DNA of 63,563 nt, filler included, from Reclinomonas americana ATCC 50394 (taxonomy: Eukaryota): the NCBI GenBank assembly GCA_048213135.1. It is 9 parts of 4 records of this genome, joined end to end, with 100 filler letters (N's around TTAATTAATTAA, not from the genome) between each part and the next. Parts side by side here need not be neighbours in the genome. Positions count along the whole stretch, not along the records: positions 1 to 12,746 come from PS015263.1; positions 12,847 to 23,891 come from PS015263.1; positions 23,992 to 27,987 come from PS015263.1; positions 28,088 to 29,913 come from PS015263.1; positions 30,014 to 34,729 come from PS015263.1; positions 34,830 to 51,027 come from PS015264.1; positions 51,128 to 53,619 come from PS015265.1; positions 53,720 to 55,238 come from PS015265.1; 1 more part is not named here. One strand, given 5' to 3'. Every line of letters begins with the position of its first letter. Position 1 is the first letter of the stretch. This document shows positions 3,109 through 62,847 of the stretch, piece after piece. The notes beneath the pieces were generated by a model, which did no database searches, was not told the origin of the DNA, and saw nothing but the letters and a program-made list of their open reading frames with translations. Position numbers and translations under genes: made by a program.

Positions 3109-5425
3109 TTACTGACTGTTGATGTCCTCCGAGAACATATCCTGCACCTCCATCGCCGTGTAGTTGGCGCTCGGCGAGCCGAACAGGTGATAGGTGGCCT
3201 TCAGACCGACCAGCGTTCTTCAATCGTAATCACAGTGTGAGGCTGTGCATGTACACACGATAACACGAATGGTACTCACGCTCGCAGATCCTGCTGCACC
3301 ACACCGCCAGTGAACTGGCTGCGGAGGAGGGCAATCAGGAAGTCGGCGCTGGCCGAATTCAGAGAGTTGACCGGAGGGTTGGCGAACGAAGTGGTCACCG
3401 TGTAGATCTGCACGCGACCAGCAATCAGCAGGTGCACAGCTCTACAACAACAACAATTCTTTCCCCAACAAACAAGCAACAGCTGTCTTGATGACCAAGT
3501 TCAACTATCCAAATCATCTCTCTCTTTCTCTCTCCCTCCCTCTCTCTCTCGTCTTCACTCTTTCCCTTTCACGCAACTGGGTTGATCTTATCATTGAAGG
3601 TCATGGTGACGGTCCAACGAAGAGAGTTCTTCTCAGCGACCGTCAACTGCGCGACGTTGGCCGACGGATAGTAAATGTCGAACATGATGGCGCTCGTGGT
3701 GGACGCCGCCAAGTTGATGCGGACCGAGGCCGGTGCCGCCAGCTCTGTACACAGGCGAAGAAGCGGAGTGAGTAAGTTGCAACACTCCTCGGAAGCACAG
3801 CGCACTCAACGAGGCAGCTGTCCCATGGGAATGTAAGCAGTGCCGATATCGGTAGGGGGCATCGAATTCGCGCCTGATGCGTTCGTCGTAATTTGCACCT
3901 GCACAAACAGATGCGCAGTGAGAAGCCTGGCACAAAAAAACACACGTGACACTGCCCCCCTCCGCACCATGACAAACGGAATCTTCTGTACGGCCGACGA
4001 CGGCTGGAAGAAGAACTCGGTGTAGTTGACGCCGACGGGTCCGACGCTCGAAGAGTAGTTGATAGTCTTGCACGAGTTGGTGTCGGACGGGAGGCACGGT
4101 CCCGGAGGGAGATACGGGTCCGGAGGAACGAGCGAGAAGGCAATGTTGTACTTGAGATCATTGCCCACTGGCGGCGTCCAGCTGACCTTGATGCGCGAAG
4201 CACCGTTGCTGTTGGCAGAGATGGCTGTGTACGTGCATGGGGGTGTAAGAGTGCGCCAAGTACGTGCATGAGAGATCTCTTGCATGCGTTGTTTGCTGCA
4301 ACGAAACTGATGAAGCGGCACGGATCCGGAGGGAAGAGGAAGCCGGTGGGAGTCGAGAAGCACAGCTTGTACTGGCCCACCGTCGACGATTGCAGCTGCG
4401 CAGCAGGGTGAGCATCCAAGCCACCACTGCATGCAAGTGCAGTTGTATCTGTAAACAAACCCGAATGACAGCCACTCCATTGTCGGCACTGACCATGCTG
4501 GTCGCCACCGTGGTCACCGGCGGCGACGAGCAATCGCCACTCAGCGGGTGCAGCGACGGCACAAAGTCGGGGCAGCTCTGGTTGTAGCAGCTCGTGTTGG
4601 AGCGGTAGAAGACGTTGCCCTTCAGCTGCGCAGTCAGGTAGTAGCCGACAGGGAAGAATGAAATCGGTCCGTTCGGGTTGCCGCCAGTGAACGGCACGTT
4701 GGTGCTCTCGATGGCCACAGCACCGCCGACCGACGCTGGATACAGAGTGAGCCAAGGTACATGTTACACGTCTTGTGTATATGTGTGTGTGGTGGATGTC
4801 TCTCACCGGTGACAATGGTGTACTTGGCAATCGGCACAGCCGGCACCGTCTTGCCAGCGGCGCGGTAGCAGATGGAGAACTGCGTACCGGCAGGCGCAAG
4901 GCTGTCCGTGATGATGGCGATGCGCGCAGTCGTAAAGCCGGCGTAGACGACTTCCAGGTGAGCGCTGATGCCAGGGACGTCAGGTGCCGGCGTGCAGGCC
5001 GCCAGACGAGCGGGGTCCGACTGGTACGAGCCGTCGGCAAACGGGTCGCCGGAGAGCGAGCTGCTGGCGAATGTGGTGCCGACGAACCAGGCGTCAGCAG
5101 TGTTCAGGCCAACGCCAGTGAACCTGTGGTGTGAGCGAAGGATGAGCATTTTCTGTCACGATGTGGGGAAGGTGCGAATTCGAAGACCAACAACGCAACA
5201 GGTAGGAGACGAGGAAGTTGTAGGGCACCGAATCGACGCCCGGCGGAGGCACGGGCAGGGGCGATGCTTGCGCTGATATGTAGAAGGAGGGAGTAGGAGA
5301 GTGCGAGTGAGTGCAAGAGTGTCGGCTAGCCTGCTTGTGTGTTGCGCGCTCGCACCTTGCGCAGCCAGTATCGTGGCCAGCAGCAGTGTGGAGAGCACCA
5401 CATACACAGTGGAGGACGCACGCAT
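3109..5425 (-). CDS. Secreted modular protein, paralog A (10 exons; signal peptide, Cys-containing beta-rich modules, FN3-like segments)
   Basis: Signal-like start MRASSTVYVVLSTLLLATILAAQ. Exons splice in frame to …QDMFSEDINSQ*. SRIKVSWTPP…LKYNIAF resembles FN3. Exon-by-exon match to the copy at 6989-9265. Confidence 0.85.
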
Positions 5426-6988
5426 GGCGTTGTTGTTGTTGTTGTTGTTGTTTTTTTGAGGTTGCCTGTTCTCCCGAGGCAAGTGCGAAAACTGTGATAT
5501 GATATTCGCCTCTCACTCGGTGATGATCGTCATCAAGTTCGGTGTCCGGAAATGGGTTCGCGACCTTCATGATGACCAACCGCTGCGAGGGAGAGGAAGA
5601 CAGAAATGCAAACCAGTACAGAGACGCCAGTGGTGTGTTGCATGCCGCGCATACGAAGGCGCGCTCAAACGGAAGGAAGAGATCTGAAGCTGGAAACGTA
5701 TACTACTATAGCTAGATGCGAAACGAGCAAACATGTGATGGAACGAACAGGCAATGTCGCAGCGCGCTAGCGGGTCACATAACAATGCAATGCAGTAAAG
5801 TGATCAAATGTATGTGGTGGCAAATCGATGCGCTTCGATATCCTGGTTGAACAAGTGAAGAGTTTTTATTGGCGGACTCTGGATTCCAAATTCGGCATAC
5901 AAGAAAATCTGCATGCAAAGTGTCGACGTGTCTGCATCGTCCAGTGAGACATGGTGGAGGGGATTGATGAGGGTTCAGAGACAATCTTTTACCAATAAAC
6001 GAGCAACAGCAGTTGCTTTGATGACAGAAAACCATATGTCTAAAACTTCTTCGATATCTCACCTCTGTTTCTCTTTCTTTCTTTCTTTCTTCTCTCTCTC
6101 TCTCCTTCCTCTCTCTCTCTCTCTCTCTCTGCAATTCTTCATGTTGCTTGTGCAGCGCTTCCCAATGCGAGTCCATGGCCTCTTGCAGTGCAACGTGTCT
6201 GCACACGTTTTATCACTCTCTCGTTGGGGTGACTCGACTGTCATGAAGTACCCAAGGGCCTGGCCAGCGCATGCGTGCTTGCAATCACTTCCTCATCCTC
6301 TTCTTCTTCTCCTTCTGCATCCGCACATCATTCTTATCATCTTCGTCTCTCTCTCTCTCTCACTCACTCTCTCTCTNNNNNNNNNNNNNNNNNNNNNNNN
6401 NNNNNNNNNNNNNNNNNNNNNNNNNNNNNNNNNNNNNNNNNNNNNNNNNNNNNNNNNNNNNNNNNNNNNNNNNNNNNNNNNNNNNNNNNNNNNNNNNNNN
6501 NNNNNNNNNNNNNNNNNNNNNNNNNNNNNNNNNNNNNNNNNNNNNNNNNNNNNNNNNNNNNNNNNNNNNNNNNNNNNNNNNNNNNNNNNNNNNNNNNNNN
6601 NNNNNNNNNNNNNNNNNNNNNNNNNNNNNNNNNNNNNNNNNNNNNNNNNNNNNNNNNNNNNNNNNNNNNNNNNNNNNNNNNNNNNNNNNNNNNNNNNNNN
6701 NNNNNNNNNNNNNNNNNNNNCTCCTCCTCCTCCTCCACCGTCGCCTCATTCTTCTTCTCCTTCGAAGAACCCTAGCAGTCGCGCGATCTCAGTCTTGACT
6801 GCTTTCAGCAACACAGCAGCGCTCTGCTGTTCCACCACAGCAGTGATGAGTCGACCATCGCCACACAGAAGCACACTGGAGAGTCCACGTTCACTGACTT
6901 AACGCACGAGAAGAATGCGTGTGATCGCTGCGCCAACAAGCTCCGTGTGCTTGGGAGGGTAGGAAGAAAAAACAGGAGAAGAGGAAGG

Positions 6989-61048: not shown

Positions 61049-62847
61049 TCACTCTTTTGCGCGGGCCATCTTGTACGGTCGTTCCCCCTCTTCGGTTTCT
61101 ATGACGGCAGCTGTGGTGCCGTGTGTGTCGTGTCTTCGGCGCTTTTGTCGCAAATTGTGTCGTTCGGCGGCATGGCGCTCAGTCCAGAACTGCATACGAG
61201 GGGAAAGTGAGAGGCTGTAGGTGTGCAGAAGAATACGAGGCAGCACGAAACATTGCCAATTAGAGCACGACATGAGTCGAGGTTCGTGCTGTTGACTTCC
61301 CACGTCGACGCCTCGTACGCCAAGTCCTTCCACTTGACCAGATAATACTCCTCGCCACCCTGCAACGCGCAACTATTGATTAAAAAAGAGGACGTGCTAT
61401 GTCCTTGCTTGCGCGGAGTGGCGACGCAACACTCGCCACGGCGTGACCGACGATGCATTCCACGCGCAACAGAGAGCCACCGGTCACGTGCGCAGCTGCA
61501 GCGGGGGCGGCGGCTGAATCGTGCCCGGCGGTGGAGTCGCGCAGCAGCAACGGCAGCGCGCGCTCCCAGTTCGGCTGCAAGTGGAAGTCGCCAGACTCGG
61601 CGGCGAACAGCAGGCACTTGTCGCCGTGCTCGGCAATCATCGAGTCGAACGCGTTGGCCAGCGCAGCGCTTGGCGAGGCCGCCAGCTGACAATCGCGGTG
61701 AACAAAAAACAAAATTATGGAAGGAGAAAACAACGTGGCGACACACCTGCAGCTCTGGCATCGTGCCCGACCGCAGCAGTTCCATGGCGACCGTGTCAAT
61801 GTCAATCGGCCGCCCCGCGCATGCGCCACGTACCGACGCGCGGAGTCCTGCGCCCGCCACCGTGTCGTGCGGTGGAATGTAGAACTGCGCGCAGTCGTGA
61901 GCCTCGAGGGAAAAAAGGAGTGCGCACGCGGATCACCAACCTCGGCAAGCCCCAGCTTGGCGATGCGGTCGGCCGCCAGTCGCGACTTGCTGGAGGAGCC
62001 GTTCGCGCCAGAAGGCAGCTTGAGTTCTGTCAGCCGCAACAGTGAGACGCTCGCCACCAAACACAGACAGCGCGAAAAGACGGGAAGAACGCACGGCTCC
62101 TCGGCGCTGCGGCCAGACGATCACGCCAGCCCGATACCAATCCGTACCGACCTGACGCCGTGCGCGTGATGATCGACTCATTCGGCGCCGCATGCTGCAA
62201 ATACTCGGTGAGCGCGCCTCCAATAAATTCGGCCGCCGCCGCCAGTGAATGTGGTCTGGGACGGCAGCGATCCTCAAAGAGGATGCCGCGACAAATCTCC
62301 TGCACCCCACAGCAACGATTAGGGCAAGGTAAAAAAGACGAGACAGAAACAATTGCCACGCAACGGTGAGGTCGGTGGCCTTGCCGTCGCACAGCACCAA
62401 CTGGAAGACGCACTCGCCCAGCGGCGTGCCACGAAGCGGGATACCCGACGCCTGCACGCGCCGGTCAAAAACAGACAGCCCATTTTTTGCGCAAACAAAA
62501 AGTGCTCTCACCTGCGCAGCAGCAAGAGCGGCAGTGGCAGCCGATCGCGTTGCCGACACGCTCAAGCGCATCGACTTGATAACATCGTCGTCATCCTCGT
62601 CGTATTCTGTCTTTCGTCCGCGCGTCATGGAGCCGAAACGTCGCTGATTTGCGTAGCGGCGACGGCGGCGACCGCGATCTGGCACGTAGCACTCATCGTC
62701 GTCGTCGTCCTCCTCCTCGGCCTCCTCGTAGTCGTCGTCGTGTGCACCGGAGAGCGCCCGCGCGTGCATTTCGTCGTCGGGGACGAGTGCCGCTAGTGCC
62801 TCGGCGTCGTCGTTTTCCTCGTCCTCGGCATTCTCCTCCTGCACGTA
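61049..62847 (-). CDS. Chromodomain-containing protein (C-terminal chromodomain); 5' exons lie beyond the window
   Basis: RVECIVGH…EEYYLVKWKDLAYEASTWE…LIGN|FWTER chromodomain pattern; acidic N-terminal exon; exons join in frame. Confidence 0.8.

Follow-up and report, generated by a model that had tools for sequence, protein, structure and literature searches.

Donor sites and genes of the window

The window analyzed in this study, a stretch of 63,563 nucleotides (nt) joined from nine parts of the genome of Reclinomonas americana ATCC 50394 (GCA_048213135.1), was eukaryotic nuclear DNA with a G+C content of 56.2% across its 55,602 non-N bases. Short introns, (GA)n/(GT)n repeats and G/A-rich tracts were dense throughout. 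Our study focused on a class of 5' splice sites (donors) in these introns, exemplified by GTTGCGT and GTTGAGT, in which T occupies position +3 and the rest of the usual donor motif appears one base further into the intron. Pfam matches placed genes for UDP-glucose dehydrogenase (UGDH; minus strand, about 14466-11011), TRM13 (plus strand, about 37815-39700), a GH63/MGH1-like hydrolase (plus strand, 40614-43396, with a Pfam-supported reading frame at 40614-43112), a cytidine/dCMP deaminase (plus strand, about 19052-19660) and a CDK7-like kinase (plus strand, about 55552-58700). Also recognized were a mitochondrial carrier and a chromodomain protein, each on the minus strand, as well as a GBP-like protein and an ankyrin protein. 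An earlier note on this DNA had listed 33 GTT motifs as donors, and all 33 were present where it had placed them, 22 on the minus strand and 11 on the plus strand.

Use of GTT sites as donors

Eleven junctions were examined by homology scoring, in which every GT..AG pair near the exon ends was joined and translated, and the local alignment scores to 40-60 homologs were summed; no donor letters beyond GT entered the score. The donors chosen in this way included GTTGCGT at 14342, GTTGCGG at 39140, GTTCCGT at 39467, GTTGCGC at 37967 and GTTACA at 56913, and the same scoring selected, as comparators, GTGGGT at 12882, GTGCGT at 11401, GTAATA at 11236, GTTTGC at 55693, GTGAGT at 57251 and GTTTTC at 58413. 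Two of the GTT junctions were also continuous in Pfam profiles to the residue. In UGDH, the exon end at 14343 corresponded to profile position 69 and the third residue of the exon from 14289 to position 72; in TRM13, the exon end at 39139 corresponded to position 149, the split codon to 150 and the second residue past 39209 to 152, and three homologs left exactly two residues to be encoded at this junction. Elsewhere in TRM13, the in-phase GTGCGG at 39476, a rival to the donor at 39467, reached a homology score of 60.9, and a consensus-looking GTGAGT at 38022 was found to lie within the intron 37967..38188. Homolog residue counts were gapless across the 56913 junction, where the Pkinase profile picked up at 92-94, and the deaminase profile was continuous from 19424 to 19494 to within about four positions, in phase 0 only. 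The TRM13 intron 39140-39209 ended in AAG (39207-39209) and not in YAG, though homology and profile continuity gave it the strongest support of any junction.

The tandem paralogs on the minus strand (copy A, 3200-5480; copy B, 7080-9330) had nine introns in common, four of them with donors of the displaced class. Across the four donor pairs (3577/7392, 3810/7613, 4307/8139 and 5199/9064), the heptamers matched at 27 of 28 bases, compared with 42 of 120 for the next 30 intron bases, and alignment of the paralogs found no repeat common to the intron bodies.

The tandem gene pair as a whole (3109-6376 and 6989-9718, minus strand) belonged to no Pfam family. Its exons were near-identical, with one 36-base in-frame exon indel, and its nine shared introns were unalignable and differed in length; either the exons have been homogenised or the introns are turning over very fast.

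Frame and protein continuity were restored by removal of the introns, and a branch-like motif preceded the AG, as in major U2-type GT-AG introns; continuity was established by profile at 14342 and 39140 and by homology at 14342, 39140, 39467, 56913 and 37967. The U12-type donor RTATCCTT occurred in none of the listed donors.

The motif itself was overrepresented. GTTGCGT occurred 24 times on the two strands, as against 7.36 +/- 2.82 in dinucleotide shuffles (none of 100 shuffles reached 24) and 8.1 expected under an order-3 Markov model, and CAGTTGMGT, which adds the exon-side CA, occurred seven times with 1.25 expected. GT-heptamers seen at least five times were then compared for a YTNAY branch motif followed by YAG 40-125 nt downstream, and GTTGCGT ranked first, with both signals at 14 of 23 copies versus 1696 of 6102 GT sites overall (p = 9e-4). 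Neither GTGAGT (12/64) nor GTGCGT (25/71) was enriched in this test, because many of their copies sit inside microsatellites. Introns of 51-101 nt, each with branch motif and YAG, were returned by an automatic rule at 27 of the 33 listed sites, and by the same rule YTNAY lay 8-41 nt ahead of YAG at 32 of the 33. A gene model with motif-free donors was too noisy for a logo; GTTGCG was among its commonest hexamers (5 of 130).

These results bear on whether the class could be an artefact of misplaced junctions, with the heptamer enriched through repeats or coding bias. A splice-competence test based on open reading frames alone passed 2421 of 6440 GT sites (38%) and did not discriminate in this low-complexity sequence; long open reading frames here are often translated CT/GA repeats. 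Several listed sites had alternative donors or acceptors in the gene model. Nine of the 24 GTTGCGT copies were outside the earlier list, and while the one at 27016 looked like a further donor, an open reading frame of 511-567 nt continued through those at 42599, 60080 and 18330; of these three, only 42599 fell in a Pfam-supported frame (GH63-like), the other two lying in frames that were simply open. The residue-exact profile continuity at two sites, the motif-blind choice by homology at five, the four paralog pairs and the lack of a repeat shared among intron bodies speak against an artefact, and they largely refuted it for 14 of the 33 sites. We regard it as exceedingly improbable. Within the limits of sequence and homology evidence, the observation in the earlier note was confirmed: 14 of the listed GTT sites are firm as GT-AG donors by homology or paralogs, the others are candidates on intron-like features, and among these 28614, 38254, 50284, 61430, 61251, 41199 and 26003 are doubtful or ambiguous.

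One-base displacement of the core and change of the exon end

For the description of donor composition, we used an evidence-defined set of 21 introns, consisting of the 11 homology-scored introns, the deaminase intron and the nine paralog-defined introns, each counted once. The displacement described in the earlier note was borne out in this set, as G stood at +5 in two of 13 donors with T at +3 (T+3) and in seven of eight with a purine there (p = 0.0022), and G+6 was found in nine of 13 versus one of eight (p = 0.024). In the list of 33, G occupied +4 at 24 sites, C +5 at 28, G +6 at 31, T +7 at 25 and G +8 at 18. This pattern mirrored the G, C/A, G, T, G that ordinary donors carry one base earlier, G+7 in the standard register being present in six of eight purine-type donors when counted by eye, with no script.

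The exon end differed as well. Exon-final G (G-1) preceded one of nine displaced donors and ten of the 12 others in the evidence-defined set (p = 0.0019), and one of 19 displaced versus 15 of 31 ordinary donors in the gene-model set (p = 0.0016). Across the full list of 33, A-1 was found at 19 sites, G-1 at two and C-2 at 17. Of the four T+3 donors that did not belong to the class, three retained exon-final G, namely GTTTGT and GTTTGC, which kept G+5, and GTTTTC, which had G at neither +5 nor +6. With a slash marking the junction, CA/GTTGCGT is the ordinary CAG/GTGCGT with one letter changed.

A looser explanation would dispense with any register, holding that donors are loosely defined, that T+3 is tolerated and that TGCGT is a separate element to which a protein or U6 binds. 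Such laxity is suggested by the evidence-defined donors GTTTTC, GTTACA and GTAATA, which had G at neither +5 nor +6, and by the occurrence of T+3 in 13 of the 21 donors overall. The element nonetheless repeated the letters of the ordinary core exactly one base on, and the exon end varied in step with the displaced core, which an unrelated element would not predict; we consider this explanation very unlikely.

Proposed pairing with U1

Pairs were counted against the canonical U1 5' end given in a table of PMC4856993. For the displaced class (n = 27), the count per site was 2.85 Watson-Crick pairs when unshifted, 5.30 in a register shifted by one base and 4.85 with a bulge at +3; ordinary donors reached 5.75 in the normal register. 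Given a canonical U1 5' end, the displaced donors would pair better shifted than unshifted, and their letters were displaced on both sides of the junction.

The bulged alternative retains the normal register at G+1 and U+2; U+2 or U+3 bulges, and +4 to +7 take over the pairs of +3 to +6. It explains the displaced G+6 and T+7 equally well, it would allow U6 to go on pairing with G and U in their displaced positions, and human sites with a bulge at +3 (or +2) have been documented (PMC4856993). A bulge predicts, however, that exon-final G, which pairs with C9 of U1, remains favoured while the core is displaced. The displaced donors showed no such preference, in the evidence-defined set or in the full list, where A-1 and C-2 prevailed at more than half of the sites. 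The loss of exon-final G and the CA exon end indicated that a shifted U1 register fits better than a bulged U, and we consider the bulge rather unlikely.

Our preferred reading, to which we assign a probability of roughly 0.5, is that the displaced sites are GT-AG donors of the major spliceosome that U1 reads in a +1 shifted register. In this mechanism, the donor form (C)A/GUUG(C/A)GU would be the ordinary (C)AG/GUG(C/A)GU with its first intron G changed to U, and U1 would pair one base out of register. Exon-final A would take the role of -2 and intron G+1 that of -1, U+2 would be mismatched, and U+3 to U+7 would pair as +2 to +6 do in the normal register. The cut would still fall at GU, being chosen by the later U6, U5 and Prp8 steps. 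Three parts of this mechanism are inferred: the use of the shifted register by U1, an ordinary or nearly ordinary U1 5' end in this organism, and the way in which U6 copes with the displaced core.

Several points weigh against this reading. The canonical U1 5' end was assumed for R. americana, and the shift gained only some 0.45 Watson-Crick pairs at each site over the bulge. C and not A dominated +5 (28/33), where position 5 of canonical U1 pairs with A; this excess of C is unexplained by canonical U1, and could reflect a U1 that carries G at position 5 (G5 U1), or a U6 or protein contact. A-1 was found in four of nine displaced and one of 12 other evidence-defined donors, which was not significant (p = 0.12). 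The GTTACA and GTTTTC donors indicated that very weak 5' sites are tolerated, so that pairing may matter less than assumed. When offered to the gene model, the displaced class gained 115 bits and 30 introns from 90 occurrences, and eight decoy classes gained between -20 and +66 bits, with 3-20 introns each, a separation that supports the class but is weak. Cleavage at GU would follow from the GT-AG pattern and from homology that resolves junctions to the residue and not the base. Sites outside homology and paralog support have intron-like features as their evidence, four of the nine evidence-defined displaced sites came from one gene family (the tandem copies), and all came from one 63.5-kb window.

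The C at +5 also bears on a further alternative, in which the spliceosomal small nuclear RNAs (snRNAs) have changed: a U1 or second U1 complementary to GUUGCGU in register, or a G5 U1, and/or an adapted U6. C+5 would form a Watson-Crick pair with a G5 U1, raising the shifted register to 6.07 such pairs per site, and the displaced class was much tighter than the ordinary donors. A preprint (bioRxiv 10.1101/2022.06.08.495308) provides precedent for U1 co-evolution in Entamoeba (AACAAAC) and in Mastigamoeba balamuthi (ACGUAC, with GUGCGC donors). According to the same preprint, Thecamonas and Mamiellales combine C+4 with a standard U1, so a preference for C need not mean a changed U1, and the loss of G-1 can be accounted for with no new RNA. 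No snRNA gene was found in the window at the Rfam gathering threshold, nor any U1 at E<=1; at E<=1, Rfam returned nothing beyond two weak small nucleolar RNA matches and microRNA-like ones that fell on microsatellite hairpins. We consider altered snRNAs unlikely as the explanation. The earlier note held that the displaced donors imply a variant U1/U6 or an altered spliceosome, which went further than the data: an ordinary U1, as assumed here, reaches 5.3 Watson-Crick pairs in the shifted register, and shifted pairing of human sites to normal U1 is established (PMC4856993). A variant U1 or U6 is possible and has precedent, but the data neither support it as stated nor require it.

Frequency of displaced donors

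The displaced type (T+3 with G+6) made up nine of the 21 evidence-defined donors. A gene model that rewarded both classes equally assigned 22 displaced, 34 standard and 11 other donors to 67 well-formed short introns, counts that depend on the model. The estimate of about a third of introns in the earlier note was consistent with both figures. Its statement that the remaining donors are mostly GTGAGT or GTGCGT was contradicted, as these were only three of the 12 evidence-defined donors outside the class: GTGAGT (2), GTGCGT, GTGGGT, GTGAGA, GTGCGG, GTGCGA, GTAATA, GTTTGT, GTTTGC, GTTTTC and GTTACA.

T+3 was frequent outside the displaced class as well, in GTTTGT (4396-4460, with 8293 in the other copy, minus strand) and in GTTTGC (55693), GTTTTC (58413) and GTTACA (56913) on the plus strand. 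In most eukaryotes, +3 is a purine, and the frequency of T+3 in this window is unusual.

If extended to the genome, these proportions would mean that two intron-start registers are routine in this organism, with U1 docking and the cut bond offset by one base in at least a third of introns. Site definition and cleavage choice would then be uncoupled genome-wide, possibly with a G5 U1, with more than one U1 or with a U6 tolerant of a U+3 that loops out. We offer this wider proposal tentatively, and hold it to be somewhat more likely wrong than right.

Comparison with known systems

Human 5' splice sites in the +1 shifted register were reportedly described by Roca and Krainer in 2009 as a small minority, unlike the proportion found here. 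The shifted and +3-bulge registers of U1 have been proven for human sites, and U6 need not show as many registers as U1, according to Tan et al. (2016, PMC4856993). The human shifted sites resemble the displaced donors in having GU at +1/+2 and in fitting U1 poorly when unshifted but well once every pair is moved by one base, and they share A-1, G+6 and U+7, as in the model oligonucleotide CA/GUCAAGU of PMC4856993. They differ in that the core here is GCGU or GAGU, following the consensus of the lineage, and in that U+3 adds a pair absent from the human example; they were also proven by experiment, whereas the donors described here are predicted from sequence and homology.

The bulge and asymmetric-loop registers of U1 (Roca et al. 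2012; Tan et al. 2016, PMC4856993) likewise place the G/U core one nucleotide off, and there U+3 may bulge or make a U-pseudouridine contact. The exon-end preference is kept in those registers, whereas exon-final G was lost in ours.

Similar departures from the usual consensus are described for other protists (bioRxiv 10.1101/2022.06.08.495308). U+3 is common in Entamoeba, with its GUUUGU-type donors and AACAAAC U1, and M. balamuthi shares C+4 and GUGCG-type donors. Those lineages have a single transformed consensus in the normal register, whereas here two registers occurred in the same genes. M. balamuthi also has no minor spliceosome (PMC8136499), whereas the window contained a candidate U12-type intron. 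Thecamonas trahens and Mamiellales resemble R. americana in having C+4 with GTGCGT-like ordinary donors, and differ in that the available sections of the preprint mention no second, displaced class.

Among the papers listed from the open-access literature searched, none described a lineage that uses the shifted register routinely, in agreement with the earlier note, which knew of no description at such frequency. There, the GTTGCGT heptamer, in DNA or RNA letters, returned primers and unrelated matches only, and atypical donors together with U1 in protists returned only the Entamoeba preprint; one tunicate paper raised the shifted register merely as a possibility. What would be new here is the use of a known rare register as a routine donor class.

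What is understood of shifted and bulged U1 registers comes from a handful of sites in human genes; these registers are relevant to the reading of disease mutations and have been treated as exceptions. If about a third of introns use shifted sites, R. americana could serve as a natural test bed for how the cut site is fixed independently of U1 pairing, for how U6 handles a displaced G/U core, and for snRNA co-evolution with two donor classes at once. Gene finders trained on one donor matrix only would get a third of the junctions in this genome wrong, as could happen in TRM13, where the GTGAGT at 38022 lies inside a real intron.

Coordinates of the introns

The introns of the displaced class, the ambiguous candidates and the comparators are collected in Table 1. 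Some candidates were accompanied by further evidence. Position 47 of the Mito_carr profile began at residue 2 of the exon downstream of the 31041 candidate, and positions 16-47 of the Chromo profile were located in the exon downstream of the 61430 candidate. At the 38254 candidate, the match of one homolog stopped at 38255. The candidate intron 41199..41266 was in frame with no stop, so that its retention is possible.

Table 1. Introns, candidate introns and comparators in the window. Copies A and B are the tandem paralogs; "best of n" refers to the homology scoring, with the scores compared; "heptamer" and "next 30" give matches between the two copies.
Feature	Coordinates	Strand	Donor	Exon end	Evidence and remarks
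UGDH intron	14290..14342	-	GTTGCGT	GAC	best of 2, 206.8 vs 193.5; Pfam 69/70-72 continuous; tblastn
TRM13 intron	39140..39209	+	GTTGCGG	TTA	best of 6, 104.4 vs 88.3; Pfam 149/150-152 continuous
TRM13 intron, zinc-finger region	37967..38188	+	GTTGCGC	TCA	best of 9, 60 TRM13 proteins, 101.2 vs 75.0
TRM13 intron	39467..39523	+	GTTCCGT	ATG	best of 6, 71.2 vs 63.0
Cytidine/dCMP deaminase intron	19424..19494	+	GTTGCGT	TGT	upstream exon to profile ~74; downstream residue 10 = 80
CDK7-like kinase intron	56913..56970	+	GTTACA (T+3, no G+5/G+6)	AAA	sole GT-AG candidate
Copy A intron	3408..3577	-	GTTGCGT	CCA	heptamer 7/7, next 30 12/30
Copy B counterpart of 3577	7292..7392	-	GTTGCGT		paralog alignment, automatic rule
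Copy A intron	3745..3810	-	GTTGAGT	CTC	heptamer 7/7, next 30 10/30
Copy B counterpart of 3810	7551..7613	-	GTTGAGT		paralog alignment, gene model
Copy A intron	4225..4307	-	GTTTCGT	TCA	heptamer 6/7 (copy B GTTGCGT), next 30 7/30
Copy B counterpart of 4307	8051..8139	-	GTTGCGT		paralog alignment, automatic rule
Copy A intron	5124..5199	-	GTTGCGT	CCT	heptamer 7/7, next 30 13/30
Copy B counterpart of 5199	9001..9064	-	GTTGCGT		paralog alignment, automatic rule
Candidate	21859..21936	-	GTTGCGT	CCA	branch + CAG at 78 nt; 542 open codons upstream; gene model
Candidate, not in earlier list	27016..27090	+	GTTGCGT	TCA	branch + CAG at 75 nt; gene model
Candidate	29571..29639	+	GTTGAGT	GCA	automatic rule, gene model
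Candidate, mitochondrial-carrier gene	30981..31041	-	GTTGCGT	GGA	branch + CAG at 61 nt; gene model acceptor 30961 instead
Candidate, mitochondrial-carrier gene	31220..31284	-	GTTGCGC	CAA	automatic rule, gene model
Candidate, mitochondrial-carrier gene	31742..31798	-	GTTTCGT	ACA	automatic rule, gene model; weak Mito_carr match in downstream exon
Candidate	44158..44218	-	GTTGCGT	TTA	automatic rule, gene model
Candidate	47842..47911	-	GTTGCGT	AAT	automatic rule, gene model
Candidate	48565..48634	-	GTTGCGC	ACT	automatic rule, gene model
Candidate	50088..50152	-	GTTGCGG	CGA	automatic rule, gene model
Candidate	50336..50398	-	GTTGCGT	CTG	automatic rule, 63 nt; gene model acceptor 50301 instead
Candidate	62300..62364	-	GTTGCGT	ACC	automatic rule, gene model
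Candidate	59333..59389	+	GTTGCGT	GCA	57 nt to CACAG, read by eye; acceptor missed by automatic rule
Candidate, ambiguous	50217..50284	-	GTTTGGT		automatic rule; gene model favours donor 50279, 5 nt downstream
Candidate ahead of chromodomain exon, ambiguous	61360..61430	-	GTTGCGT		acceptor 61373 or 61360; donor maybe 61470 GTTGCGC
Candidate past chromodomain, doubtful/ambiguous	61190..61251	-	GTTTCGT		62 nt, branch + CAG; gene model chose otherwise
TRM13 candidate, ambiguous	38254..38321	+	GTTGTGT		automatic rule, gene model; in-phase GTGTGT 38257
Candidate, doubtful/ambiguous	26003..26073	+	GTTACGC		intron-like features only; gene model chose 26036
Candidate, GH63-like gene, doubtful/ambiguous	41199..41266	+	GTTACA		intron-like features only; upstream exon without Pfam support
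Listed motif, doubtful donor	28614..28620	+	GTTTCGT		tandem repeat also reading as donors on opposite strand; no well-formed 3' end
Comparator, copy A	4396..4460	-	GTTTGT (T+3, G+5)	CGG	paralog alignment; copy B donor 8293
Comparator, kinase, long intron	55693..56826	+	GTTTGC (T+3, G+5)	AAG	best of 4, 120.7 vs 110.0
Comparator, kinase	58413..58473	+	GTTTTC (T+3, no G+5/+6)	AAG	best of 6, 139.9 vs 118.4
Comparator, kinase, 1042 nt	57251..58292	+	GTGAGT	TCG	best of 4, 226.1 vs 186.5; GTTACC 58239 in 3' end
Comparator, UGDH	11330..11401	-	GTGCGT	GCG	best of 5, 104.5 vs 96.3
Comparator, UGDH	11618..12882	-	GTGGGT	GAG	best of 3, 171.2 vs 158.5
Comparator, UGDH	11179..11236	-	GTAATA	AAG	best of 2, 121.8 vs 92.6

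A few introns of 1042-1265 nt (55693-56826 and 57251-58292 on the plus strand, 11618-12882 on the minus strand) occurred among many of 50-100 nt. The pyrimidine-rich 3' ends of the long introns mimicked short introns, as at 58239, where GTTACC resembled a donor. This candidate was rejected, since the kinase homologs joined 57250 straight to 58293.

Other features of the window

The nearest relatives of TRM13, among 1.8 billion representatives, were 43% identical and spread over animals, plants and chytrids, and relatives of the CDK7-like kinase reached an identity of at most 67%. For UGDH (11011-14466, minus strand), the best protein-search matches were bacterial (Verrucomicrobiota and others), with 58-60% identity across the central exon, and the N-terminal exon was looked for and not found. 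The nearest protein-atlas clusters of the GH63/MGH1-like gene (40614-43396, plus strand) were only bacterial. Judged from these matches, gene transfer is possible for both genes. A search for related environmental loci found none, and no transfer RNA genes were found in the window.

The (GA)n, (GT)n and G/A-rich repeat tracts lay in introns and between genes, for example at 15080-15820, 48908-50125 and 61936-63561. They gave rise to stop-free open reading frames of 400-550 codons with low-complexity translations, and to sub-threshold microRNA-like Rfam matches. A block of 44 N, the 12-base TTAATTAATTAA and another 44 N recurred nine times (for example at 51028-51127, 12747-12846 and 23892-23991); these blocks have the appearance of assembly linkers that stop translation in every frame. 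Several genes were interrupted by larger N blocks.

Separate from the listed donors was a candidate U12-type intron at 26809-26899 on the plus strand, with the donor ATATCCTT at 26809, the branch motif TCCTTGAC at 26872-26879 and a 3' end near 26896-26899. Its donor was the sole RTATCCTT in the window, and the combined U12 pattern matched once there, a count reached by none of 100 shuffles. This candidate, as a predicted intron, suggests that a minor spliceosome has been retained in the organism.

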